DNA of 64,000 nucleotides from Bacteroidia bacterium (lineage in GTDB: Bacteria > Bacteroidota > Bacteroidia > UBA8524): the NCBI GenBank assembly GCA_965249955.1, contig OZ252261.1:3362490-3426489 (forward strand), given 5' to 3'. Positions 6,970 to 60,492 of the stretch are shown here, piece after piece. The notes beneath the pieces are model-generated. The model was given only the letters and a program-made list of their open reading frames with translations. It was not told the DNA's origin and searched no databases. Within the stretch, counting starts at the first letter, position 1. Each line of letters starts with the position of its first letter. The position numbers and the translations under genes were made by a program.

Positions 6970-8178
6970 CTAGTTCTTGGCCATTATTTTCCTCACCTTT
7001 TCAGCTGAGGGAATGCTACGGGCAGGCCATGTTTTTATTACAACAGGCCCTTTCATTAATATTAGCCCCGCATTGCTGCGTATCATCGATTTGCCCATTT
7101 TAGGGTCAACACTATAAAAGTCAAAAATCAACCCATACTCATGGCGGTATTTTTCAGCATCTTCTAATGTAGTGCCTGTTAAGCCCCATACTTTTTTGCC
7201 GTCTTTTTCTATAAACTCTTTGGCCAATTCTGATACGGCTTTCATACCTCGTTTTCTAGAGTGCTCTAAATCGTAGGCTACAACCAATAGCTGAAAATCG
7301 TTGTTTTGCAGCATACTGTCTTTATAGTCTACATTATCGGGGTTGTACATAGTAAAACCCATAATTTTTGGTTTGCACCCTTCGCGAATTATCTTTCTGT
7401 CTTGTTTCACAAATTCAGCACCTTCAGGCACTTTCATTGCCATAACATCATCATAAGAAAAGGTAGTTTCTTGCTCACCCACCTTATACACAAAAGTCAT
7501 TACAACACTATCTTTAGGTGCATCGGGTGGGCACACCATCAGTTCGGCTACGTTGTTGCCGTCATCCCAATACAAAAAGTTTATCATGGGCAGGTACATA
7601 TAGCAATACACCGTAAACATGGTAAACAATACCGATAGCGATACTATAATATTGGTTTGCATATTGCGCGAAAACAATGAACGCGTATGCGAACGGCGTA
7701 TAAATATGATAATGATAAACACCAGCAATATCAAATCTTTGGTGAACGATTGCCAAGGGGTAAGTTTTATAAACTCGCCAAAGCAACCGCAATCGGTCAT
7801 ATAGTATATATTTTTAGGGTTAAAGCTAAAAAGGTTTGCAAACCATTGGGTAGTTCCGGCCTCAGGGTTTTCAAAAAACCAATTGCTTATAGCGGTGTAA
7901 CCTGTAAGCAATGAGAAGAATATTATCATTGCCATGATAAGGCTTGATGTAACTTTCATCCGCGTGCCTATTAGTACCGCAAAGCCCAATATTATTTCAA
8001 GCACACAAATAAACATGGCTTGAAATAAAGCGCTGCTAACTAAAAAATCGAGACCAAAAACATGGTAGTATTCCTCTAGCTTATATGAGAAACCAAGCGG
8101 ATCGTTTGCTTTTACAAAGCCCGAAAAAATAAACAGTAAGCCCACCAATATGCGGCTTATAGTAGCTATTACTCTCAT
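6970..8178 (-). CDS. DoxX-family membrane protein fused to a C-terminal soluble domain (BT_3928-like)
   Basis: N-terminal DoxX-like TM region (RILVGLLFIFSGFVKANDP) plus a roughly 200-aa C-terminal domain. It overlaps the upstream DUF1599 gene by 4 bp, so the two form an operon. Confidence 0.65.
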   Translation of the reverse strand: MRVIATISRILVGLLFIFSGFVKANDPLGFSYKLEEYYHVFGLDFLVSSALFQAMFICVLEIILGFAVLIGTRMKVTSSLIMAMIIFFSLLTGYTAISNWFFENPEAGTTQWFANLFSFNPKNIYYMTDCGCFGEFIKLTPWQSFTKDLILLVFIIIIFIRRSHTRSLFSRNMQTNIIVSLSVLFTMFTVYCYMYLPMINFLYWDDGNNVAELMVCPPDAPKDSVVMTFVYKVGEQETTFSYDDVMAMKVPEGAEFVKQDRKIIREGCKPKIMGFTMYNPDNVDYKDSMLQNNDFQLLVVAYDLEHSRKRGMKAVSELAKEFIEKDGKKVWGLTGTTLEDAEKYRHEYGLIFDFYSVDPKMGKSMIRSNAGLILMKGPVVIKTWPARSIPSAEKVRKIMAKN

Positions 8179-23352: not shown

Positions 23353-23374
23353 AAATATTTTTATATTTGCCTTG

Positions 23375-24034
23375 ATGTTTAGTTTTACCGAAGAAAATTA
23401 CCTAAAAGCTATTTTCAAACACTCGCAAAAAGAAGGCGGCGAGGTAAGCACCAATACTATTGCCGACGAGCTGAATACCAAAGCGGCATCTGTTACAGAT
23501 ATGCTGCGAAAATTGGCCGATAAAGGACTGATAAACTATGAAAAATATAAAGGGGTAACCCTTACCAAAGCAGGACGAAGTATAGCTGTTTCTATTATTC
23601 GAAAGCACCGTTTGTGGGAGGTTTTTTTGTGTGAGAAACTAAAATTTAGGTGGGACGAGGTACACGAAGTGGCCGAACAATTGGAGCATATACATAGCGA
23701 TTTATTGATTGACCAGTTGGACGAGTTTTTAGGCTTTCCAAAAAACGACCCTCACGGCGACCCTATTCCTAATAAAAATGGCGAGTTTCCTAAAGATGCT
23801 CAAATAAGCGTTGAAAATGCACAAGTGGGCACACACTATACCATTAGCGGGGTGAGTGATGAAGACAATAATTTTTTGAAGTACTTGAATAAATTAGAGA
23901 TATCACTGGGCTTGCCCTTTGAGGTACTTGAACGTTTTGAGTTTGACGGTAGCATGACGGTAAAAATAGGCGAGGAACGAAGCCTGCAAATAAGCAAAGA
24001 AGTTGCCCAAAACTTGTTTGTAGCCAAAGTATGA
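23375..24034 (+). CDS. mntR: DtxR/MntR family metal-dependent transcriptional regulator with a C-terminal FeoA domain
   Basis: N-terminal HTH (EENYLKAIF...), a dimerisation and metal-binding region, and a C-terminal FeoA-like SH3 domain. Confidence 0.85.
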   Translation: MFSFTEENYLKAIFKHSQKEGGEVSTNTIADELNTKAASVTDMLRKLADKGLINYEKYKGVTLTKAGRSIAVSIIRKHRLWEVFLCEKLKFRWDEVHEVAEQLEHIHSDLLIDQLDEFLGFPKNDPHGDPIPNKNGEFPKDAQISVENAQVGTHYTISGVSDEDNNFLKYLNKLEISLGLPFEVLERFEFDGSMTVKIGEERSLQISKEVAQNLFVAKV

Positions 24035-25920
24035 AAGAGAAAGAACACGCCTCAAAATCGCTAAGCGAGGTACACGGCAGTGTGAGTGTGCCTCATAAAC
24101 GCGGTTTTTTTAAAACCCTTTTAGCGTTTTTAGGGCCTGCCTATCTAGTTAGCGTGGGCTATATGGATCCGGGTAACTGGGCTACCGATTTGGCAGGAGG
24201 CAGTAAATTTGGCTATGCCCTTATTTGGGTATTGCTAATGAGTAACCTAATGGCTTTGTTATTGCAAAGTCTTAGTGCGCGTTTGGGTTTGGTGCGTGGC
24301 CTCGATTTAGCACAAGCCAGCCGACATACTTATCCGCGTTTTATTAATATCCCTCTGTATGTATTGGCCGAAATAGCCATAGCCGCTTGCGACCTTGCCG
24401 AAGTTATAGGTATGGCCATAGGCTTGCAACTGTTGTTTGGTCTCGATTTGCTAACGGGGGTGTTGATTACCGTAGCCGATACGTTTTTGCTTCTTTTCCT
24501 TATAAATAAAGGCATACGCAAAATGGAAGCCTTTATACTTTCAATGGTTACCATAATAGGTATTGCCTTTTTAATCGAAATGCTGATTGTAAAGCCCGAT
24601 GCTGGCGAGATGGTAAAAGGTTTAATCCCTTCACTACCCGGTGATGGAGCTTTGTATATAGCCATAGGCATTATAGGAGCAACGGTAATGCCTCACAACT
24701 TGTATTTGCATTCATCGTTAGTACAAACCCGCCGTTTCAGCAAAACCGATGAAGGTGTAAAAAAAGCCATTCGTTTCAATTTTATCGATTCAGCAGTTGC
24801 TCTTAACCTTGCTTTTTTTGTCAATGCAGCCATACTAATACTGGCAGCAGCAGCTTTTCATAATCGCGGTTACTTTGATGTGGCCGAAATTCAAGATGCA
24901 CACCAATTACTCACCAATCTTTTTGGTAGTACAGCCCCAATATGGTTTGCTATTGCACTAATAGCCGCAGGGCAAAGCAGTACCATTACAGGCACATTGG
25001 CTGGTCAAATAATAATGGAAGGGTATCTAAACCTGCGTATTCGCCCTTGGTTGCGGCGTATTATTACTCGCTTGTTAGCAATAGTCCCTGCCGTTTTCAC
25101 CATAGTTTATTTAGGCGAAGAAAAATTGGGCGCATTGCTTATTCTTAGTCAGGTAATACTAAGCCTACAACTGGGCTTTGCCGTAATACCTTTAATACAC
25201 TTTGTTAGCAATAAGCGCAAAATGGGTATTTATGTTATAAAGCCGTGGGTACAAGTATTGGCTTGGCTGTGTGCCATTATTATTGTTGGTCTTAATGTTA
25301 AACTGGTTATTGACGAAATAAGCAGTTGGCTTCAAAGTGCAGGAGATAATAGTATTTATATATACATTTTTGTATTGCCCATTATTGTGTTGGCAGGTAT
25401 ACTGTTGCTTTACATTATTTTTAGTCCGTTTATAAAACCCGATAAGAAAGTAAAAACAAACAATATGCCGCACGGGCAGGCTTTAGATTTAGGAGAATTA
25501 ACCCTTAAAGAGTTTAAAAACGTGGCTATTACTATTGATTTTTCTGATATGGATAAAACAGCTATAGAAAATGCCATATCGCAGGGCGGAAAACAAGCCC
25601 ACTATACCCTGATACATATTGTAGAAAGTGCCGGGGCAAGTGTTATGGGTGCGGATATTCACGACCATGAAACTGAGCAAGATATAGAAAACCTTAGCAG
25701 CTATGGTAACTACCTGCAACAGCAAGGCTACCAAGCCGATGTGCAAATAGGCTACGGAAACCCCGCAAAGGGTATTGCTGAAATTGTAAATAAAAGCAAT
25801 TGCGACCTTTTGGTAATGGGGGCACACGGACACAAAACCTTTAAAGATTTGCTGTTTGGTGCTACCGTTGATGCGGTACGCCACAACGTTAAAATACCTG
25901 TATTGGTAGTGCGGGGGTAG
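24031..25920 (+). CDS. mntH: Nramp family divalent metal (Mn2+/Fe2+) transporter fused to a C-terminal universal stress protein (UspA) domain
   Basis: Nramp motif GPAYLVSVGYMDPGNWATDL with 11-12 TM helices, then a C-terminal Usp fold of about 150 aa. It overlaps mntR by 4 bp. Confidence 0.85.
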   Translation: MKEKEHASKSLSEVHGSVSVPHKRGFFKTLLAFLGPAYLVSVGYMDPGNWATDLAGGSKFGYALIWVLLMSNLMALLLQSLSARLGLVRGLDLAQASRHTYPRFINIPLYVLAEIAIAACDLAEVIGMAIGLQLLFGLDLLTGVLITVADTFLLLFLINKGIRKMEAFILSMVTIIGIAFLIEMLIVKPDAGEMVKGLIPSLPGDGALYIAIGIIGATVMPHNLYLHSSLVQTRRFSKTDEGVKKAIRFNFIDSAVALNLAFFVNAAILILAAAAFHNRGYFDVAEIQDAHQLLTNLFGSTAPIWFAIALIAAGQSSTITGTLAGQIIMEGYLNLRIRPWLRRIITRLLAIVPAVFTIVYLGEEKLGALLILSQVILSLQLGFAVIPLIHFVSNKRKMGIYVIKPWVQVLAWLCAIIIVGLNVKLVIDEISSWLQSAGDNSIYIYIFVLPIIVLAGILLLYIIFSPFIKPDKKVKTNNMPHGQALDLGELTLKEFKNVAITIDFSDMDKTAIENAISQGGKQAHYTLIHIVESAGASVMGADIHDHETEQDIENLSSYGNYLQQQGYQADVQIGYGNPAKGIAEIVNKSNCDLLVMGAHGHKTFKDLLFGATVDAVRHNVKIPVLVVRG

Positions 25921-38431: not shown

Positions 38432-40975
38432 ATGAACAAGCTTTTATTAAGCCTCGTTATTTTTTGTTGTGCCCTACAACTATCTGCACAAAACTGGATT
38501 GGCGTTGCAAATGGCAACTATGCAGGTACTAATGGTGTTTATCTTAATCCTTCATCAATTGTTGATAGCCGTGTAGGTGGGTATATCAACTTTTTTGGTG
38601 TGGGTACTAATATGTATAATAACTATATTAGTTTTAGTGGGGATAAATCATTGTATCGTGCATTAAGAGACACAAGCACCAAGCTTACTGATGCAAATTT
38701 TAAAGAAAACCTTAATGGAAAAGATAAGGTTGTTAATTTTTCTACAGAATTGCGCGGGCCTAGCTTTATGGTTTCGCTTCATCCTAAACACGCAATAGGT
38801 GTTACTACCCGCAGCCGCACATTTGTGCAAGCAGTTGATGTATCGCAGCCTATAGCGCGTATGATACGTTGGGGTTTAGATGACTCTACAACAGGTTTTC
38901 AAGGCCCTGATGGGCTTTCTTATGAGCAATTGTATAGCGAAACTCGTTTTGGTATAAATGTAAACAGCTTTGCCGAAGTGGGTTTTACATACGCAGCAGT
39001 TATTTTAGATAAAAAAGAACATTTCTTAAAGGCAGGTTTTACCTATAAATACCTTGCCGGTTTATACTCGTTTTATTTTAAAAACGAAGGTGGCGGAGGT
39101 GTTACCATTAAAGGTGTTGACAGTATAACTTTTACCAATACAAACATACAGTACGGCTATGTAGGTGAAAATCTGTACAAAACCGATAGCAATAGCTATG
39201 GTCTTGATTTTGCTAGTGTTTTTGGCCCCAATAGGGTAGGCAAGGGCTACGGTATTGATTTAGGCTTTACCTACGAGTTTAGGCCTAATCATAAAGAATA
39301 CCGCTATAAACTGGACAATAAAGAACGTTGGGATAAAACAGAGAATAAATACTTTTTGCGTATTAGCGGTACACTTATGGATTTTGGGCGTATTAAATAC
39401 AGCAGCCCAAAATATGTACGCAGCAATACCTTGTCAAAAAATAGAACGGTTACATGGGGTAGTATAGATACTGTGGGGAAAATATTTGAAAGTGTAGATA
39501 ATGTTGGGGTTGATGAAAGTGTGCTTGATCGTTTTGATCGTGCCGCAGGTGCTGTTTTTGGTTTTGACGATAAGAAAACCGAGTTTACATCAAAACTGCC
39601 CACAGCCTTTAATATACAGGCCGATGTTAGGGTAGTGAACAATGTGTATGTTAACGTAATGTGGCTGCAAGGTCTTAGAGGAAAAGGAGCTATAGGAGCA
39701 CGCCAGTTTTCAATGTTGGCAGCAACGCCTCGTTTCGAAACCCGTTGGTTTGAAGCCTCTATGCCATTAGTGCTTAATAATGATTATCGTAATTTTTCTT
39801 TTGGGCTTTTTGCCCGTTTTGGCCCCTTCTTTATGGGGTCTGATAACCTAACAGGCTTATTTAAATCTAAAAATGTAAACGGTTTAGATTTTTATGCTGG
39901 TATGTCGCTACCCTTGTTTAAGCGTAACCCAAGGGATAGAGATAACGATGGAGTATCGGATAAAAAAGACCTTTGCAAGCGTGAAGCAGGTAAGTGGGAG
40001 TTTATGGGCTGCCCTGATAGGGATAATGATAGCATAGTTGACTCTAAAGATAAGTGTCCTGATGTGGCGGGTTTGCCACAGTTTGATGGTTGCCCTGATA
40101 CGGATAAAGACGGTATTGAAGACTCTAAGGACGAATGCCCTGAGGTATTTGGATTGGCTAAGTTTAACGGTTGCCCTGATACTGACGAAGACGGTATAGA
40201 AGATCGCTTAGATTCTTGCATTAATGAAAAAGGAATGCCCGAACTAAACGGCTGCCCTGATAGTGATGCCGACGGTATTATTGATAAATATGATGAGTGT
40301 GTAAACGAACCCGGTTTGCCACAGTTTAACGGTTGCCCTGATACCGATGGTGATGGTATACCTGATAAGCTGGATAAATGCCCCGGTAAAAAAGGCTTGG
40401 CTGAATACAATGGCTGCCCTGATACCGACGGCGATAAAATACCTGATAATATTGATAAATGCCCTGATGCAGCAGGTTTGCCACAGTTTAACGGTTGCCC
40501 TGATACCGATGGTGATGGTGTGCAAGACTATGATGATTTGTGCCCGCTTACCCCCGGATTAAAAGAAAACAACGGTTGCCCAAAAGTTGAAGAGAAGATT
40601 GAGATATTGGAATTGGATGAAGAGGAAGAAAAAGTGTTGCGTGAGGCCTTTGATAACTTAGAGTTTGAAACAGGAAAATCAATAATTCAGGCTGAATCAT
40701 TCAAAAGCCTAGATGAGTTAGTGGTATTAATGAATACAAAAACCAATTATCGCATATATATAGCTGGTCATACAGATAATGTAGGTAATGCCAAAGCAAA
40801 CCAACAATTAAGTGAAGACCGTGCCAACGCTGTGAAAAAATACCTTATTGATAAAGGTATTGCTGAAACACGTGTTAAAACCGAAGGGTTTGGCGATACT
40901 CGCCCCGTAGCAAGCAATAAAACCGCAGAAGGCAGGCAGAAAAACCGAAGGGTTGAGTTTAAAGTAATAAAATAG
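38432..40975 (+). CDS. OmpA family outer-membrane protein with a large beta-rich N-terminal domain and thrombospondin type-3 (calcium-binding) repeats
   Basis: Signal peptide, then a roughly 480-aa aromatic-rich N-domain. About 12 TSP3 repeats (CPDTDGDGIPD). The C-terminal OmpA peptidoglycan-binding domain has the motif IAGHTDNVGN...NRRVEF. Confidence 0.8.
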   Translation: MNKLLLSLVIFCCALQLSAQNWIGVANGNYAGTNGVYLNPSSIVDSRVGGYINFFGVGTNMYNNYISFSGDKSLYRALRDTSTKLTDANFKENLNGKDKVVNFSTELRGPSFMVSLHPKHAIGVTTRSRTFVQAVDVSQPIARMIRWGLDDSTTGFQGPDGLSYEQLYSETRFGINVNSFAEVGFTYAAVILDKKEHFLKAGFTYKYLAGLYSFYFKNEGGGGVTIKGVDSITFTNTNIQYGYVGENLYKTDSNSYGLDFASVFGPNRVGKGYGIDLGFTYEFRPNHKEYRYKLDNKERWDKTENKYFLRISGTLMDFGRIKYSSPKYVRSNTLSKNRTVTWGSIDTVGKIFESVDNVGVDESVLDRFDRAAGAVFGFDDKKTEFTSKLPTAFNIQADVRVVNNVYVNVMWLQGLRGKGAIGARQFSMLAATPRFETRWFEASMPLVLNNDYRNFSFGLFARFGPFFMGSDNLTGLFKSKNVNGLDFYAGMSLPLFKRNPRDRDNDGVSDKKDLCKREAGKWEFMGCPDRDNDSIVDSKDKCPDVAGLPQFDGCPDTDKDGIEDSKDECPEVFGLAKFNGCPDTDEDGIEDRLDSCINEKGMPELNGCPDSDADGIIDKYDECVNEPGLPQFNGCPDTDGDGIPDKLDKCPGKKGLAEYNGCPDTDGDKIPDNIDKCPDAAGLPQFNGCPDTDGDGVQDYDDLCPLTPGLKENNGCPKVEEKIEILELDEEEEKVLREAFDNLEFETGKSIIQAESFKSLDELVVLMNTKTNYRIYIAGHTDNVGNAKANQQLSEDRANAVKKYLIDKGIAETRVKTEGFGDTRPVASNKTAEGRQKNRRVEFKVIK
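39930..40580 (+). repeat. Tandem nucleotide repeats encoding the TSP3 calcium-binding motifs
   Basis: GGTTGCCCTGATACCGATGGTGATGGT occurs several times in this stretch. Confidence 0.6.
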
Positions 40976-41104
40976 GTCGCAGTCATTACAATCATAAATA
41001 ATCCCGTGTTACATCAGTAGCACGGGATTATTTTTTTGGTTATCAACACTCTGTGCGTGCATCTCACCTTAAAAAATTGTTATTTTGATGTAAATAAATT
41101 GCCC

Positions 41105-43477
41105 ATGATGAAATTTTACTCAAAGCTATTTTTATTATTTCTATTTGTATGTCCTTCGGTTATTCAGGCACAGCACTGGTTGGGCTATGCTAATAGTAGC
41201 TATGCCGGAACAAACGGTATGTACCTAAACCCCGCTACCATAGCTAATAATAAGTATAATTTTTATATGAATTTGGCTAGTTTCAATACTAATTTATATA
41301 ATAATTACATAAGTCTTGATTTGCCGTATAGTGCTTGGCGTGTGCCTTTCGGAACAGTGCAAAGTCAATATTTAGACGGTAGTGGAAACCCTACTTTTGA
41401 GGACAACTATCTAAAAGAGAACTTAAACGGAAAAAATAAGGACATAAGTTTTATGACGGAGGTTAGAGGGCCTTCGTTTCTGTTTTCAATAGGCCCAAAA
41501 CATACAATAGCTTTTGGTACACGGGTACGGGCAGGGGTGCAATTGCTGGATATGAATGAAAACTTGGCACGTATTGCCCGTTGGGGAACAGACCCTACTA
41601 ACCCTGCATTTTCAGGGCCTGATAGCTTGGCATATAATACCCTTTATGGTCAAAACGATTTTACATTAAATGCCAATGCTTTTACTGAATATAGCTTTAC
41701 TTACAGTGCTTTGGTGTACGAGGATAAGGAGCAAGCTTTTAAAGTTGGAGTTACCGCAAAACGCCTTACAGGTTTGTACAGTTCGTATTTTCAGAACCAA
41801 CCCAATGGAGGTATAATAGTTTACAATGGCGATAGTATGGGGTTTGTAAATGCCAATATACAATACGCCTATGTTGATGAAAACTATTACACTGCCAATG
41901 GAGCTGATTTAAGTGCTTCACGTATACTGTTTAAAGATCCATTGGGTAAAGGTTGGGGGTTTGATATAGGTTTTACCTACGAGTATAGACCCGACTATAA
42001 AGATTTTAAGTATACTATGGATGGCAAAAAACGCTACGATAGAAGTGCTGTTAAACATAAGTTTAGAATAGCCGCAGCACTTACTGATTTGGGAGGTATA
42101 AACTATAACAATAGCAGATGGGTGGGCGAGAGAGTATTGCCTCAAAACCTTTCGGTAAATGTAGGGCAGTTTGATACCTTACGTCGTGCTTTTGATGATT
42201 TTGGACAAGAGAACGGAGACTTAAGTGGTTTTGATAGAATGAACGCCTACATAGGCCGTATTACCAATGGTTTTCAATCAGCAAACAACTCCTTTCGTTC
42301 TAAATTGCCTGCTACTTTAAACCTACAATTTGATTACAATATCTACCGCAATTTGTTTGCAAACGTTACTTATATACAAAGTTTGCGTAAAAAAGGTGGT
42401 GTAGGAATGCGGTACTTTAATCAACTTTCCGTAACGCCTCGTTATGAATCAAAATGGTTTGAAGCAGCTATACCCTTAGTAGTTAACAACGATTTTAAAT
42501 CGGTAAACTTTGGTTTGTTTTTCAAATTTGGCCCTATGTTTATAGGCTCTGATAGGGTAGGGTCTCTATTATTCAAATCACGTAACCTATACAGTATGGA
42601 TGCCTATGCAGGTATAGCTATACCCATAGCCTATAAAAAGCCAAAAGATAGAGACCACGATATGGTATCTAACAAAAAGGATAAGTGCCCCGAAGTGGCC
42701 GGTGTATGGAAGTTTAAAGGTTGCCCCGATACCGATGGTGATGGTGTTGCTGATTCAGAAGACCGTTGCCCTGATGTTGCAGGAATAAAATCGATGAAAG
42801 GTTGCCCTGATACGGATAAAGATGGTGTTACCGATAGTTTGGATAAATGTCCTGAAGTGGCAGGTGATAAAAAGCTTGACGGTTGCCCCGATGCAGACAA
42901 TGATGGTATTGCCGATAGTGAAGATAAATGCCCTGATGCTGCCGGAACTGCTGCAATGAACGGCTGTCCTGATACGGATGGTGATGGTGTGGCTGATAAC
43001 GAAGATAAATGTCCTAATGCAGCGGGTTTAAAACAATTTGCAGGCTGCCCCGAAGAAGTTAAAGACACTACTCCTACATTGGTGCCAAAAACGAAACCAC
43101 AACCCCAAACCCAAAACGAAGATGAGGTGCTGCAAGAAGCCTACAATAATTTGCAATTTGCCACAGGCAGTGCAGTAATAAAAGAAGAATCTTATGAGGC
43201 GTTGAATAAGCTGGCGCAATTGCTTAAAGCAAAACCCAACTACCTAGTATCTATTGAAGGGCATACTGATAATGTAGGAAGTTCTGCCGTAAACTTAACG
43301 TTAAGCAAGCAAAGGGCGCAAGCAGTGCGGAAATATTTAGTAGAAAAAGGCATTGATGCCAAACGAATATTTACAGAAGGGTATGGTGATTCAAAACCAA
43401 TAGCTACTAATACTACCGCTGAGGGAAGAAAGAAAAATCGCAGGGTTGAGTTTTTAATAATACGTGTAGCCAAATAA
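41105..43477 (+). CDS. Paralogous OmpA family protein with the same N-domain, TSP3 repeats and OmpA domain
   Basis: Same architecture as the upstream gene. The two share N-domain blocks such as YAGTNG.YLNP and PR[FY]E..WFEA..PLV.NND. The ATG at 41105 gives a signal peptide. Confidence 0.8.
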   Translation: MMKFYSKLFLLFLFVCPSVIQAQHWLGYANSSYAGTNGMYLNPATIANNKYNFYMNLASFNTNLYNNYISLDLPYSAWRVPFGTVQSQYLDGSGNPTFEDNYLKENLNGKNKDISFMTEVRGPSFLFSIGPKHTIAFGTRVRAGVQLLDMNENLARIARWGTDPTNPAFSGPDSLAYNTLYGQNDFTLNANAFTEYSFTYSALVYEDKEQAFKVGVTAKRLTGLYSSYFQNQPNGGIIVYNGDSMGFVNANIQYAYVDENYYTANGADLSASRILFKDPLGKGWGFDIGFTYEYRPDYKDFKYTMDGKKRYDRSAVKHKFRIAAALTDLGGINYNNSRWVGERVLPQNLSVNVGQFDTLRRAFDDFGQENGDLSGFDRMNAYIGRITNGFQSANNSFRSKLPATLNLQFDYNIYRNLFANVTYIQSLRKKGGVGMRYFNQLSVTPRYESKWFEAAIPLVVNNDFKSVNFGLFFKFGPMFIGSDRVGSLLFKSRNLYSMDAYAGIAIPIAYKKPKDRDHDMVSNKKDKCPEVAGVWKFKGCPDTDGDGVADSEDRCPDVAGIKSMKGCPDTDKDGVTDSLDKCPEVAGDKKLDGCPDADNDGIADSEDKCPDAAGTAAMNGCPDTDGDGVADNEDKCPNAAGLKQFAGCPEEVKDTTPTLVPKTKPQPQTQNEDEVLQEAYNNLQFATGSAVIKEESYEALNKLAQLLKAKPNYLVSIEGHTDNVGSSAVNLTLSKQRAQAVRKYLVEKGIDAKRIFTEGYGDSKPIATNTTAEGRKKNRRVEFLIIRVAK
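42640..43060 (+). repeat. Tandem nucleotide repeats encoding the TSP3 motifs in the paralog
   Basis: Repeated GGTTGCCC(C/T)GATAC(G/C)GAT units. Confidence 0.6.
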
Positions 43478-54812: not shown

Positions 54813-54848
54813 AAAAAAATAGCCCCGCTTACAAAGCGGGGCTATTTT
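54813..54848. terminator. Bidirectional intrinsic terminator between coaE and the pyrophosphatase gene
   Basis: ATAGCCCCGCTT-ACAA-AGCGGGGCTAT, flanked by an A-run upstream and a T-run downstream. Confidence 0.7.
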
Positions 54849-54870: not shown

Positions 54871-57249
54871 TTAGTGAGCACTATCATTGTGCATTTTATC
54901 GTGGTCAACACCTTCTGGGTGGTGTCCTTCTTTAGCGTGTTTTACACATTCAGCTTTTTGCTCAGGGGTACAACCTACGCTATCGCAGTAAGCAGCACAC
55001 TCTTCAGGGCTCATGTGCATACATTTTTCCATATCGCATTTAGCATTAGTATGAGCGCCATGATGTCCACCGTGCGCACTGCACTCGGTTTTAGCACCGT
55101 TTACACAGCAATCAGCTCCACCAGCCATAGCACCATGTCCGCCACCGTTTACAGCAATATGAGGAGCTATAATTAATGAAACGATAGACATTAATTTGAT
55201 AAGGATATTCATTGATGGGCCAGAAGTGTCTTTAAAAGGATCGCCCACAGTATCACCTGTTACAGATGCTTTGTGTGGTTCTGATTTTTTGTAGTACATC
55301 TCTCCATCAATGTTAACACCTTTTTCAAACGATTTTTTAGCATTATCCCATGCACCACCTGCGTTACTTTGGAACATACCCATAAGTACACCGCTAACAG
55401 TAACACCTGCTAATACACCGCCTAAAACTTCAGGGCCAAATATAAATCCTACAATCACAGGAACTACAAGTGCAATAGCACCGGGTAGCATCATTTCGCG
55501 AATAGAAGCTTTAGTTGAAATTTCAACACATTTTTCATACTCAGGTTTGGCTTTATACTCCATAATACCCGGTATTTCGCGGAATTGGCGACGTACCTCG
55601 TTTACCATATCCATAGCTGCGCGGCCAACGGCTGCAATAGCTAATGAAGAGAATATAAATGGTATCATAGCACCAACAAATAAACCTGCCAATACGTTGG
55701 CTTTGTATATATCAATAGCATTTATACCTGCTATACCCACAAAAGCTGCAAATAAGGCTAGTGAGGTAAGAGCAGCCGATGCAATAGCAAAACCCTTGCC
55801 TGTGGCAGCGGTAGTGTTTCCTACGGCATCTAAATTGTCTGTACGTCCACGAACTTCTTCAGGTAGTTGACTCATTTCTGCAATACCACCTGCGTTGTCA
55901 GCAATAGGGCCAAAAGCATCAATTGCTAGTTGCATGGCTGTTGTTGCCATCATACCTGCGGCAGCAATGGCCACACCATATAAACCTGCTAACTCGTATG
56001 AACCGTAAATACCGGCTGCCAATACTAATATTGGTAATACAGTACTTTCCATACCTACCGAAAGACCACCAATAATATTGGTAGCATGACCTGTTGATGA
56101 TTGACGTATGATTGAAAGTACAGGACGTTTGCCCATTGCTGTATAGTACTCAGTAATAATACTCATTAAAGTACCTACTACAAGACCAAGTATTATAGCC
56201 CAAAATACATTCATGCTGGTAAACTCGTATCCACGTATAACTAGGTTATCGGGTAACATCCATTTAACAACAAAAAATGAAAAAATAGCGGTTAAAACTA
56301 TTGATGAATAGTTACCCATATTAAGGGCTTTTTGTACGTTTCCGTTTTCACCTTTAATTTTAACAAACATCATCCCTACAATAGAGAATATAATACCCAA
56401 ACCTGCAAGAAGCATAGGTAATAGTATTGGAGCCATACCTCCAAAGTCATCAAACGATACAATTTCACGACCCAATACCATTGTAGCCAATATAGTTGCT
56501 ACATAAGATCCAAAAAGGTCGGCACCCATACCTGCAACGTCACCTACGTTATCACCCACGTTGTCGGCAATAGTAGCAGGGTTACGCACATCATCTTCAG
56601 GTATACCTGCTTCAACTTTACCCACAAGGTCGGCACCTACGTCGGCAGCTTTAGTATATATACCGCCACCCACACGGGCAAAAAGAGCAATACTTTCAGC
56701 ACCTAACGAAAAGCCTGCAAGCACTTCAAGTGCTTTTTCCATCTCTTTTCCGTTAACGCTGGCACCGGTATTTTTTACATAAATGGTATAAAATAATATA
56801 AAAAGAGAGCCTAAGCCTAAAACGGCTAAACCTGCAACACCCAAGCCCATTACAGAACCACCTGTAAACGATACTTTAAGCGCTTGTGCAAGGCTGGTAC
56901 GTGCAGCTTGTGTGGTACGTACGTTAGCCTTAGTGGCTATTTTCATACCTATATAGCCTGCTACTGCTGAAAACACAGCACCAATTAAAAACGAGATAGC
57001 TATAATAGGGCTTGATGTCTCAACTGTCGTTCCGCTCCAAGCAAGCAGGGCTGCAGCTATTACTGCAAAATAAGAAAGTACTTTCCATTCAGCTTTTAAA
57101 AAGGCCATTGCACCATCGGCAATATATCCGGCCAGTTCTTTCATGTTGTCATCACCAGCGTCTTGTTTGTTTACCCAAGCCGATTTAATGGCCATAATAA
57201 TCAAACCAACTACACCAAGTGCGGGAATTACGTAAATAAGGTTATCCAT
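54871..57249 (-). CDS. hppA: Membrane-bound proton/sodium-translocating pyrophosphatase with a Cys/His-rich C-terminal extension
   Basis: H+-PPase motifs [15 protein letters not shown] and GGAWDNAKK. The ATG at 57249 (MDNLIYVIP) is preferred. An extra tail of about 95 aa carries 9 Cys and at least 12 His. Confidence 0.9.
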
Positions 57250-57568
57250 ACTTTTCTTTCTATTCGGTTTTTTTACAAGTCGGCAAAAATAAGGTTTTGT
57301 GCTTATAAAGCGAAAAATAGTTGTAGCTATAGCTAATTTAAAGTTTTTATTAACAGATAAGCAGTATAGAGCATACACATTGTAGTTGAGCCTTAATTAA
57401 GTGCTACAAGCTATGATACATAAGGGTTGGAACACTTTTTTTGTGTGGTTTTATAGCGAAATATAAGGTGTAAGGGGCTGGGTATTAAATATCCACATAT
57501 ATTTAATTTTTACTTTGCGAAGTGAAAAAGGGCATGGTATTTGTTTTTTTACGGCTGAATATTTTTTT

Positions 57569-58097: not shown

Positions 58098-59180
58098 CTA
58101 CTGTTTCTTTGTCACCATTCCATCATCGCCAATTAATAAAAAATTTTCAGGGAAGTCTTCATTAGTAAGGTCTTGTATTAATTTCAATGCCCATTTTTTT
58201 TCGCGGTCAACCATTGGGATGCCTTCACCCACTTGTTTTATAGGTGTTATTTGCGCCGAGATAAAGTTGCCTTTAGTATCAGTAGTTACCTTTACTATTG
58301 GTGCTACACCACTTTCAGCAGTCAGGCTAAAACGGTCGTAAGTAGCAAAGTTGCCTAAACTATAACATATAAGGTGGTTGTTGTATAACTCTATGGCACG
58401 GGTAACGTGCGGGCCATGCCCAAATACAACGTCAGCACCTGCATCAATTACAGCATGGCTAAATTCATATACATTACCTCTGTTTTCACCAATAAATAGT
58501 TCTGTTTCTTTGGTTACGTGTTGCTTGCTTCGTCCCTCGCCACCACCATGAAACGATACGATTACAATATCGCACAAGCTGTCTAAGCCCTGCACTATTT
58601 CTTTAGCACCCTCAATATCATTTATGCTTACAGTACCACTGTTGGGCGCAAAGGCAGCCAATCCGTATTTAATACCGTCTTTTTCTATAATAGTAGTAGG
58701 ACAGCTTAATAGTCCTGCGTATTGTATGCCGTACTCTTCAAGAGTTTTCATGGTTATTTCACGCCCTTCTGCACCAAAATCACCACTGTGGTTGTTGGCT
58801 ATACTAACTAAATCAAAGCCTGCATCTTTATAGTATTGCCCATAATGACTTGGCGAACGAAAGGCATAGCATAGTTTTGGGTTTCTGCACCTTTTCACTT
58901 TCCCTTTTGTACCCGCCAAAGTCCCTTCAAGGTTGCCAAAGGTTATATCAGCATCTATCAAAATGGCACGTACACTATCCAAAAGGTTTGCGCCATCGTT
59001 AGGGGCAAGGTGTTTAGTACTGGGGTAGTTGGTGCCTAGCATCATATCGCCTACACCAATAATAGTTACTGTTTGTATTGCACTATCGTTTGTTTGCAAT
59101 AGTGTATCGGTTTGTGCCGTTAAACTATTATTTGTAAAAAGTAGTATAAGAAACAGTAGAGCTAGGGTAAGTTTTTTCAT
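58098..59180 (-). CDS. CapA family (poly-gamma-glutamate/capsule synthesis metallophosphatase-like) protein
   Basis: Signal peptide and PGA_cap motifs (IGVGDMMLGTN...GNLEG). Confidence 0.8.
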   Translation of the reverse strand: MKKLTLALLFLILLFTNNSLTAQTDTLLQTNDSAIQTVTIIGVGDMMLGTNYPSTKHLAPNDGANLLDSVRAILIDADITFGNLEGTLAGTKGKVKRCRNPKLCYAFRSPSHYGQYYKDAGFDLVSIANNHSGDFGAEGREITMKTLEEYGIQYAGLLSCPTTIIEKDGIKYGLAAFAPNSGTVSINDIEGAKEIVQGLDSLCDIVIVSFHGGGEGRSKQHVTKETELFIGENRGNVYEFSHAVIDAGADVVFGHGPHVTRAIELYNNHLICYSLGNFATYDRFSLTAESGVAPIVKVTTDTKGNFISAQITPIKQVGEGIPMVDREKKWALKLIQDLTNEDFPENFLLIGDDGMVTKKQ

Positions 59181-59497
59181 TGAGCGTCTTTATCCAGAAT
59201 ATCTTTTATATCAACCAGCAAATTGCGCACTTTGTAAAGGCTATCAATAATTTCCACCTTTTTGGTGCCGTTGCCTTTATCCAATTTTAGTTTTTCGTTA
59301 GCACCTTGCAGGGTATAACCTTGTTCTTTTACCAAATGGTATATAAGACGAAGATTGCCCACATCATCTTTGGTAAATTGACGATTGCCTTTGCTGTTTT
59401 TTTTAGGTTTCAGTATATCAAACTCTTTCTCCCAAAAACGAACAAGCGAAGCATTAACTCCCAGTATTTGCGATACTTCGCTAATGGAGTAATACAT
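59177..59497 (-). CDS. MerR family transcriptional regulator
   Basis: MYYSISEVSQILGVNASLVRFWEKEF is a MerR HTH. An alternative ATG lies at 59527. Confidence 0.8.
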   Translation of the reverse strand: MYYSISEVSQILGVNASLVRFWEKEFDILKPKKNSKGNRQFTKDDVGNLRLIYHLVKEQGYTLQGANEKLKLDKGNGTKKVEIIDSLYKVRNLLVDIKDILDKDAQ

Positions 59498-59526
59498 TTT
59501 ATCGGGGTTTTCTTCTTCAGGTAGCA

Positions 59527-60492
59527 TTAGTCGAAAGATTGGTTGTTTGAAGCTGCAAGTTCTTTAATTTTTTCGTAATCCGCAGGGGTAAGGTCATTAT
59601 AATAAAAATGTACAGGGTTTACCTTCCTGTCGTTTTTAATCACCTCGTAGTGCAAGTGTGGTGCTGTAGATAAGCCGGTTGAGCCTACTTCGCCCAGTTT
59701 TTGTCCTCTGGTAATTGTTTCCCCTTTTTTCACATTCATTTCACTCATGTGGGCATAAAGGGTTTCGTAGCCATAGCCGTGGTCTACTATTACGTGGTAG
59801 CCATAGCCTTCGTTATAGGCTGCAAAGCTAACAACACCATTGCCCGTAGCGTATATGGGCGAACCTTTTGGGGCAGTAAAATCCATACCCGTGTGCATTT
59901 TTCGGGTTTTATATATAGGGTGTATACGATAACCGAAACCTGATGCAACACGACTTAAGTTTTTATTCTCGATAGGCTGTATAGCAGGTATACTGGCCAA
60001 CATATCTTGCTTGCGTGTGGCACGTGCAATAATATCATCAAACGATTTTCGTTGGTGTTTCATAGTTGCAGCCAAAGTAGCCAAGCGTTCGCTCATTCGT
60101 TTTACTTCTGCATCATCATCAAAGCCTTTTATTTGCCTGTATTTTTTGTGCATTTTTTTATCCAAGCTGCTATCGGTTAAAGGTTCAGCCTCAAACACCA
60201 CGCGGTATATTTGAGTGTCGCGTTGCACCAACTCATTTAATGATGAAGAAAGCTCGTCGATAGATTTATCGTAAAGCGAAAGCTGCAATTGGTAATTTTC
60301 AATCTCTTTTTCTAGTATTTTTTCTTTTGGCGAGCTAAAATAAGTATAGGCCAGCCACATAATGCCCGCACCAAAAACTACAGATGCGCATAAAAAGCCA
60401 AATGTACGTAAAGCAATTTTGGCCCAATTGCGTTTCTCAATCTCGTATGTGAGACTGTGCGGGTCGAAAAAGTATTTGGTTTTTTTTGCCAT
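59527..60492 (-). CDS. M23 family metallopeptidase
   Basis: HTGMDF...HLH motifs, an N-terminal TM helix and a coiled-coil region. Confidence 0.85.
   Translation of the reverse strand: MAKKTKYFFDPHSLTYEIEKRNWAKIALRTFGFLCASVVFGAGIMWLAYTYFSSPKEKILEKEIENYQLQLSLYDKSIDELSSSLNELVQRDTQIYRVVFEAEPLTDSSLDKKMHKKYRQIKGFDDDAEVKRMSERLATLAATMKHQRKSFDDIIARATRKQDMLASIPAIQPIENKNLSRVASGFGYRIHPIYKTRKMHTGMDFTAPKGSPIYATGNGVVSFAAYNEGYGYHVIVDHGYGYETLYAHMSEMNVKKGETITRGQKLGEVGSTGLSTAPHLHYEVIKNDRKVNPVHFYYNDLTPADYEKIKELAASNNQSFD

Follow-up and report, generated by a model that had tools for sequence, protein, structure and literature searches.

Why would a membrane pyrophosphatase (mPPase), one of a group of enzymes usually regarded as self-contained 16-helix pumps without accessory domains, continue past its last helix with a long tail rich in Cys and His? 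The question is raised by a 64,000-nucleotide stretch of the genome of a Bacteroidia bacterium of the GTDB lineage UBA8524 (assembly GCA_965249955.1, contig OZ252261.1, positions 3,362,490 to 3,426,489; hereafter, the window, to which coordinates refer unless another locus is named), in which a coding sequence on the minus strand (54871..57249) specifies an mPPase of 792 amino acids (aa) plus a stop codon, with an ATG start at 57249. Residues 701-792 of this protein (54874..55149, minus; NGGGHG...NDSAH) form a C-terminal tail with 9 Cys, 12 His and 5 Met. Our results show that the tail is a genuine in-frame part of the pyrophosphatase, and that the six-Cys module it contains is an undescribed accessory domain, representing a new domain family, on a well-known pump.

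The body of the protein is a full-length member of the pyrophosphatase family. The Pfam model H_PPase (PF03030) matches residues 13-694 over profile positions 1-645 of 645 (E = 1.6e-268; 893 bits vs. a cut-off of 29.7), and the 16-helix body is collinear with the solved structures based on phmmer, with query residues 6-694 corresponding to residues 17-725 of the Thermotoga maritima enzyme and query residues 83-703 to residues 142-760 of the Vigna radiata H+-PPase (766 aa). The last helix, transmembrane helix (TM) 16 (~residues 679-700; 55150..55215, minus), aligns to the end of the solved chains of both species and, because the two alignments stop there (at query residues 694 and 703, respectively), the extension amounts to 89-92 aa without counterpart in solved mPPases. 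That is, the tail, which is returned together with the stop codon when positions 54871-55149 (minus) are translated, is in frame and much longer than the ends of the characterized enzymes. The original prediction, made by a model from the sequence and quoting protein letters that lie within the open reading frame (ORF) 54871..57378 (minus), had described a 95-aa tail with 9 Cys and many His in CxxC-like and HxH-like spacings. The composition was correct, with 9 of the 10 Cys of the protein in the tail and 1 in the 700-aa body (Fisher p = 2e-8), and 12 of the 15 His in the tail and 3 in the body (Fisher p = 1e-9), but the length was slightly overestimated relative to the alignments and the tail, while Cys-rich, contains no strict CxxC, its spacings being CC, Cx4C, Cx3C and Cx7C.

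Three parts, all on the minus strand, can be distinguished within the tail. A flexible Gly/His-rich linker of 34 aa (55048..55149), with a CC pair at residues 714-715, follows helix 16 and includes a semi-conserved G-x-K-x-E-C motif (residues 718-723; 55081..55110) that sits 18-23 residues past the helix and in which G, K and E are each conserved at ≥90% in the alignment. Next comes the six-Cys module (module A; residues 735-772, 38 aa; 54934..55047), with the pattern C-x4-C-x7-C-x3-C-x4-C-x7-C and a predicted three-helix mini-domain fold, followed by a His-rich C-terminal end of 20 aa (54874..54933) that is fast-evolving and predicted to be disordered; relatives bear different His-rich ends, e.g., HGHGHGDHANHSH and GHDHEGHDHEGHDHHHDE. 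When the whole tail was modeled with AlphaFold2, the module was the only part predicted confidently (predicted local distance difference test, pLDDT, of 76-84), whereas nearly all other residues, among them the entire linker and the greater part of the C-terminal end, scored below 50. Modeling of a 48-residue segment containing the module, with 72 aligned sequences, gave a mean pLDDT of 79 (85-90 for the core) and predicted helices at positions 9-13, 17-27 and 31-43 of the segment.

Module A has the consensus KCDMxKCxxM(T/S)xEECAxYCDSxGC(S/T)PExKxxC, and its conservation was assessed based on 177 unique instances gathered with a pattern that fixed the first and fifth Cys (C1 and C5), meaning that invariance at these two positions is by construction. 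Among these instances, C3, C4 and C6 were Cys in ≥99% and C2 in 93%, the Asp after C1 was 99% conserved (the pattern permitted D or E), and conservation was 94-97% at Met-12, Asp-22 and Lys-31, positions on which the pattern placed no constraint. The window tail matches this definition in its Cys pattern, in the Asp after C1, in Met-12, Asp-22 and Lys-31, and in its position C-terminal to helix 16. A profile-based re-collection without any Cys requirement recovered all six Cys in 176 of ~204 unique modules, while C2 was replaced by V, M, I or S, with C1 retained, in 15. Purifying selection on the module is as strong as on the enzyme body: in comparisons with three relatives (L002, L003, L004), the ratio of nonsynonymous to synonymous substitution rates (dN/dS) was 0.045-0.072 for the module and 0.057-0.106 for the pump body. 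In the same three relatives, the dN of the linker was 3-7 times that of the module; for linker and C-terminal end together dN was 3-20 times higher, and the His-rich end showed values of 0.14-0.64 vs. 0.03-0.07 for the module.

These data leave very little room for the alternative view that the tail has no function and reflects low-complexity read-through or an artefact of assembly, which we find scarcely credible and regard as effectively refuted already. It is true that the linker and the C-terminal end are of low complexity and evolve quickly. However, identical or one-substitution 835-aa ORFs are found in independent assemblies (P0002-P0004, and L001 from SRR10140512), which excludes a frameshift or sequencing error, and relatives with 81-96% identity retain the reading frame and the Cys positions, and carry Cys-rich tails. 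The low dN/dS of the module, its retention in hundreds of genomes and the presence of a terminator after the stop codon (below) likewise speak against an artefact. Further, while the extension is common in the clade, it is not the low-complexity sequence without conserved Cys/His positions that the original prediction had named as a possible refutation, since the Cys positions are invariant.

Searches against databases and the literature returned no prior description of the module. The window tail matched no Pfam or NCBIfam family at E ≤ 0.1, metal-binding or Cys-rich domains included, and the YceI-like domain (PF04264) that is found in some relatives (below) was absent from it according to the Pfam scan. 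Among related tails and standalone proteins (nine searched against Pfam and eight against NCBIfam), the sole hit that passed a family cut-off was YceI, in one of them. The module profile had no match at E ≤ 10 among PDB sequences, and Foldseek comparison of both structural models with the PDB returned nothing below E = 2 (the best E-values were 2.3 and 6.4). A full-text literature search found no account of a Cys-rich tail on an mPPase; the only C-terminal extension found was an OmpA-like domain, which the mPPases of Burkholderiales such as Paucibacter carry and which is described as having a role that "remains to be elucidated" (PMC11210485).

How widely is the module distributed, and is it tied to the pump? 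When GTDB genomes, one for each species, were scanned, at least 509 module-encoding stretches were confirmed, a number that tandem copies may inflate. In all of the best 80 loci, the module is C-terminal on a pyrophosphatase (PPase) ORF. Searching 1.84 billion representative proteins with the profile returned 67 hits, ~29 of which included PPase C-terminal sequence; many of the remaining hits were short, fragment-like pieces, and a few were standalone proteins in which two N-terminal TM helices precede Cys-rich repeats and the module. Word-index searches yielded one hit with the tail and only 30 short fragments with the module profile, the index being insensitive to short Cys-rich queries; the informative data came from the exhaustive profile search and from the genome scan. 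Thus, when the tail is sought as a standalone domain, as the original prediction had proposed, a few membrane-anchored module proteins do exist, but the module resides mostly on pyrophosphatase C-termini, to which it is essentially restricted. Nearly all hosts are metagenome-assembled genomes of Bacteroidota, the two that are not metagenome-assembled being Flavobacterium adhaerens and Bacteroidetes bacterium UKL13-3; a few records under other taxon names (Agrobacterium, Bifidobacterium) are probably binning errors.

The tails are also strikingly modular. Module A was present in one copy in 50 sources, two copies in 31 and three copies in 1 (n = 82), and the tails combine it with CC-K repeats, a second six-Cys module (module B; C-x3-C-x3-C-x5-C-x3-C-x3-C, 'CMEGCxHGCKTKEECxKxCGxxCAxxH'), a third Cys module, Met-rich stretches, His-rich ends and a YceI domain. 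In relatives with 81% identical pump bodies (P0030, P0031, P0033, P0041), module A was exchanged for other modules. Among the 120 closest homologues, 32 carried module A, 27 other Cys-rich tails, 10 YceI and 51 shorter, Cys-free tails (34-99 residues).

A few further observations on tail architecture were made among the relatives. Sister pyrophosphatases (P0051-P0093, 897-899 aa; L016, L054) have the YceI-like domain PF04264 in the same place at the C-terminus, based on a Pfam scan for L016 (E = 8.5e-37) and on precomputed Pfam annotation for P0051-type tails; in L016 and L054, this domain directly follows a copy of module A. Flavobacterium-type tails (L066, L068, L072; P0127, P0131, P0146 and others) finish in a beta-rich segment devoid of Cys (...KVKATVTT...VFEG(S/T)xxEVxAKVxALK), and a shorter, related segment makes up the whole tail of the Algoriphagus enzymes (735-738 aa); the beta-rich segment has no Pfam family, its only hit being a weak one to Big_1 (E = 0.002). 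Standalone module A proteins (P0159, P0151: two TM helices, CC/CxK repeats) are encoded immediately 3' of a gene resembling thiol-activated cytolysins (PF01289) on three contigs from different samples (L083:220-2858, L084:10-2648, L085:1-960; the L085 cytolysin fragment is 76% identical to that of L083), and a fourth similar place was reported.

On which side of the membrane the tail resides determines what chemistry is available to it. The N-termini of even-numbered mPPase helices point toward the cytoplasm (PMC8657866) and the query aligns over all helices, so the C-terminal end of helix 16 is expected to be lumenal/periplasmic and, by this published topology, the tail should face the periplasm. 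Any sensor, chaperone-dock or redox-switch role, as envisaged in the original prediction, would therefore be extracytoplasmic and not cytoplasmic. The gate includes N/D16.46 and K16.50 of helix 16, and the opening of the exit channel is periplasmic (PMC5150537); with the helix end also periplasmic, the tail would thus emerge beside the ion outlet. In the standalone homologues, Lys/Arg-rich loops between the two helices suggest, by the positive-inside rule, that the Cys-rich part is outside. YceI and OmpA-like domains are periplasmic families. Their fusion at the same point in other mPPases (for OmpA-like, PMC11210485) fits a periplasmic tail. Because its passage across the membrane requires the tail to be unfolded, any cofactor put together in the cytoplasm is excluded. 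An Fe-S cluster, a precursor of the SCIFF or ribosomally synthesized and post-translationally modified peptide (RiPP) type, and a double-glycine cleavage site were considered and rejected, given the unfolded export, the lack of a family match and the lack of maturation genes nearby.

Within the periplasm, our tentative preference, to which we would give a little less than an even chance, is that the tail is a metallothionein-like appendage that binds soft metals such as Cu and Zn. The tail would fold in the periplasm after membrane insertion, and its Cys thiolates and His imidazoles (plus Met thioethers in many relatives) would bind soft or borderline metals (Cu, Zn), making it a membrane-tethered, metallothionein-like element beside the ion exit of the pump. 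It might simply buffer or capture periplasmic metal, or feed back on pumping too, the latter being conceivable because helix 16 carries N/D16.46 and K16.50 (PMC5150537). The module itself may be partly stapled by disulfides, with the His/Met/Cys linkers doing much of the binding. Metal binding, as put forward in the original prediction, is still the most plausible chemistry, judging from composition and analogy. Specifically, the mean composition of 144 unique Cys-rich tails is 12.4% Cys, 7.6% Met and 5.7% His but only 7.3% FWYLIV, which suggests that they have no hydrophobic core, and His-rich ends (HDHEGHDHEGH) and Met-rich runs (MMHG, MDMG) are common among the relatives. Such ends and runs resemble known periplasmic metal-binding sequences. 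The duplication of modules and their swapping between close relatives also point to metal binding, as do the lack of a bias toward even Cys counts in whole tails and the replacement of C2 in some modules that retain C1. Moreover, some helical proteins with a lining of reduced Cys are known to store periplasmic Cu(I) (Csp1 and the gonococcal Csp; PMC5171941, PMC12510493).

Alternatively, the tail might be a purely structural, disulfide-stapled periplasmic mini-domain, in which disulfides within the module keep together a three-helix fold that has no hydrophobic core, and metal is not involved; its role could be to contact the periplasmic loops of the pump, the partner protomer or an envelope component, or merely to stabilize the protein. 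This is the main rival explanation, and we consider it rather unlikely, albeit one with several observations in its favor. The tail should lie in an oxidizing compartment, modules A and B have six Cys each, the hydrophobic content is very low, a helical mini-fold is predicted with confidence, the conserved S/T-P-E-E helix caps and the Asp/Lys positions look structural, and periplasmic domains unrelated to metal (YceI, OmpA-like) occupy the same site in other mPPases. However, C2 is repeatedly lost while its partner Cys is kept (the 15 of ~204 modules mentioned above, all with C1 in place), and thus a three-disulfide knot is not obligatory. In addition, whole tails lack an even-number bias in their Cys, and the enrichment in Met and His, and the His-rich ends, would be left unexplained by disulfides.

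It is important to note that a number of points weigh against the metal-binding explanation. The Cys of a conserved module always add up to an even number (six), and unfolded export into an oxidizing compartment favors disulfides for the module itself. Periplasmic copper proteins mostly use Met and His rather than Cys. The count of Cys per tail, which is even in 76 cases and odd in 68 and thus shows no even-number preference, is based on interrelated sequences; the AlphaFold2 model is uninformative on metal vs. disulfide; and the window tail, as mentioned above, matched no metal-binding family. The genomic context belongs on the same side of the balance. No metal-homeostasis gene was found within ~17 kb on the low-coordinate side of the pump gene or up to the window end on the other side, and the link to adjacent metal-homeostasis genes that the original prediction had suggested did not hold, with the nearest such gene (Nramp) located ~29 kb away. 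Neither were the neighborhoods of the 80 related loci conserved or metal-related: a neighbor was shared with the window in only 1-2 of the 80, the recurrent neighbors, judged from sequence alone, were patatin-like (26), periplasmic-binding-protein-like (21) and deoxynucleoside-kinase-like (12) genes, and a ZIP-like transporter, likewise judged from sequence and not scanned against Pfam, stood beside only 5.

The genes that flank the pump in the window (CoaE, YajC, DUF1573, NusB, PIG-L, NlpC/P60, PGA_cap, MerR, M23, AlaRS, OmpA-like genes and MiaA) are of housekeeping or envelope function. The sole metal-related gene among the scanned ORFs of the window is the above-mentioned Nramp, an MntH-like transporter fused to a C-terminal universal stress protein (Usp) domain (24031..25920, plus; 629 aa), whose start is overlapped by a 220-aa ORF at 23372..24034. 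The short MerR-family regulator (59177..59527, minus; 116 aa) has no Cys and, hence, is not a metal sensor of the CueR/ZntR/MerR type; an M23 peptidase gene follows it on the same strand with a one-base overlap, and alaS is near. Elsewhere in the window, two tandem paralogues (38432..40975 and 41036..43477, plus) each combine DUF5723, thrombospondin type-3 repeats and an OmpA C-terminal domain, and a 402-aa protein (6970..8178, minus) has a MauE-like membrane domain at its N-terminus, the remainder being without match at the threshold used. MauE is a redox-associated family, and this protein could bear on the periplasmic thiol-disulfide chemistry of the organism.

The proximity of the tail to the ion gate raises another alternative, that is, a thiol-disulfide (redox) or metal-sensing switch, in which oxidation or metal loading would alter the packing of the tail at the mouth of the exit channel and thereby modulate H+ pumping. 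The tail is joined directly to helix 16 with its N/D16.46 and K16.50 (PMC5150537), the conserved G-x-K-x-E-C motif lies close behind that helix, and ATC, bound on the periplasmic side, inhibits the T. maritima enzyme (TmPPase; PMC8657866), which indicates that the periplasmic face is coupled to catalysis. Nonetheless, such a switch appears improbable given the predicted disorder and rapid evolution of the linker that joins the module to helix 16, the wide variation of tail architecture on bodies that are 80-90% identical, which is a poor fit to a precise docking interface, and the existence of standalone module proteins that are anchored in the membrane but have no pump. We would assign a similarly low probability to the tail being an extracytoplasmic sensor that reports periplasmic metal load or redox state to the ion gate via helix 16.

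Which ion the pump moves bears on a last alternative, and the residues of the gate suggest a K+-dependent H+ pump like that of Flavobacterium johnsoniae, and not a Na+ pump. E185 aligns with S235 of V. radiata (position 5.43), the motif DLFGSYVA places G at 6.53 and A at 6.57, with Glu missing from both positions, and a 10-residue motif places Ala, which marks K+ dependence, at 12.46. Glu at 5.43, no Glu at 6.53 or 6.57 and Ala at 12.46 are the criteria of the F. johnsoniae K+-dependent H+-PPase (PMC10897367, with A12.46 in its Table 1; the enzyme type is traced there to Luoto et al. 2011), and the same gate signature was found in 120/120 of the closest homologues and in 68/68 complete module-bearing loci. 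A Na+-translocating PPase was considered, since the NCBIfam model NF001955 passes its cut-off (1276 vs. 1059 bits), and rejected, as position 6.53 has Gly and not the gate Glu. Accordingly, the 'sodium-translocating' name given by NCBIfam and public annotations is probably wrong for this clade. No literature was found on a Cys-rich tail in the F. johnsoniae-type PPase, which resembles the window pump in these gate residues, while other Flavobacterium genomes carry one (L066, L068, L072). With H+ as the predicted ion (PMC10897367) and tails rich in His, Glu, Asp and Lys, the tail could also be imagined as a proton buffer or antenna that collects or disperses protons at the pump exit. We regard this as highly improbable, because it is the Cys pattern, not the titratable residues, that is the most conserved feature, and His are few in many relatives.

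Several known systems share elements with the tail described here. The mPPases of Paucibacter and other Burkholderiales (PMC11210485) similarly have an extra domain of ~110 residues on the periplasmic side after helix 16, but that domain is OmpA-like rather than Cys-rich and helical, and the enzymes belong to another phylum and are described as K+-insensitive. Csp1/Csp3 (PMC5171941) and the gonococcal Csp (PMC12510493) are helical, bind Cu(I) through many Cys lining their core and include periplasmic members; they differ in being soluble four-helix bundles of a different family that are not tethered to a pump, and thus the analogy is functional only. Pfam scans of the window tail and the related tails gave no Csp-type match. 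The plant P1B-ATPase HMA4 transports the metal that its tail, which is cytosolic, binds. Like the pump described here, HMA4 is an ion pump with a C-terminal extension bearing CC pairs, an extension that is required for function and whose affinity for Zn is nanomolar (PMC6255694). There is no homology between the two, however, and the window tail would be periplasmic and its pump would move H+. Finally, the twin-CxnC hairpins of Cox17/CHCH proteins, which are eukaryotic and mitochondrial, are small helical domains of an oxidizing compartment in which Cys staple adjacent helices, and Cox17 binds Cu(I) through an adjacent CC pair. The window tail likewise includes a CC pair, which precedes the module by 23 residues, but its Cys follow Cx3C ... 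Cx7C plus Cx4C spacings rather than twin Cx9C, and no sequence or fold match was found.

As for the boundaries of the gene, the ATG at 57249 is almost certainly the true start, because close relatives of 793-797 aa share the length from this start to helix 16 and the T. maritima enzyme aligns from query residue 6. The ORF and the public 835-aa gene models begin instead at a GTG (57378), 43 codons upstream of the likely ATG; the additional stretch (57250..57378, minus; MYALYCLSVNKNF...) has no counterpart in the 793-797-aa homologues and is probably not translated. On the 3' side, a hairpin resembling an intrinsic terminator (54813..54843, minus) begins 28 nt past the stop codon, with a 9-bp GC-rich stem (AGCCCCGCT/AGCGGGGCT), a 5-nt loop and then T7; it was seen in the sequence, was partly detected by a terminator scan and probably serves the convergent coaE as well.

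At a minimum, therefore, our results define a new domain family. More broadly, they indicate that a whole clade of Bacteroidota bears modular, periplasmic tails, of which the six-Cys module is the commonest building block, on helix 16, a helix that carries gate residues (PMC5150537). If the tail binds metal, as we tentatively favor, it would represent a new kind of membrane-tethered periplasmic metal buffer. Should it act as a sensor instead, it would be the first natural regulatory domain to act on a membrane pyrophosphatase from outside, and a tail that talks to the gate would echo the reported ATC site of TmPPase (PMC8657866); the various tails of Bacteroidota, that is, Cys-rich modules, YceI domains and beta-rich ends, would in that case form a family of exchangeable domains that supply periplasmic input to the pump.

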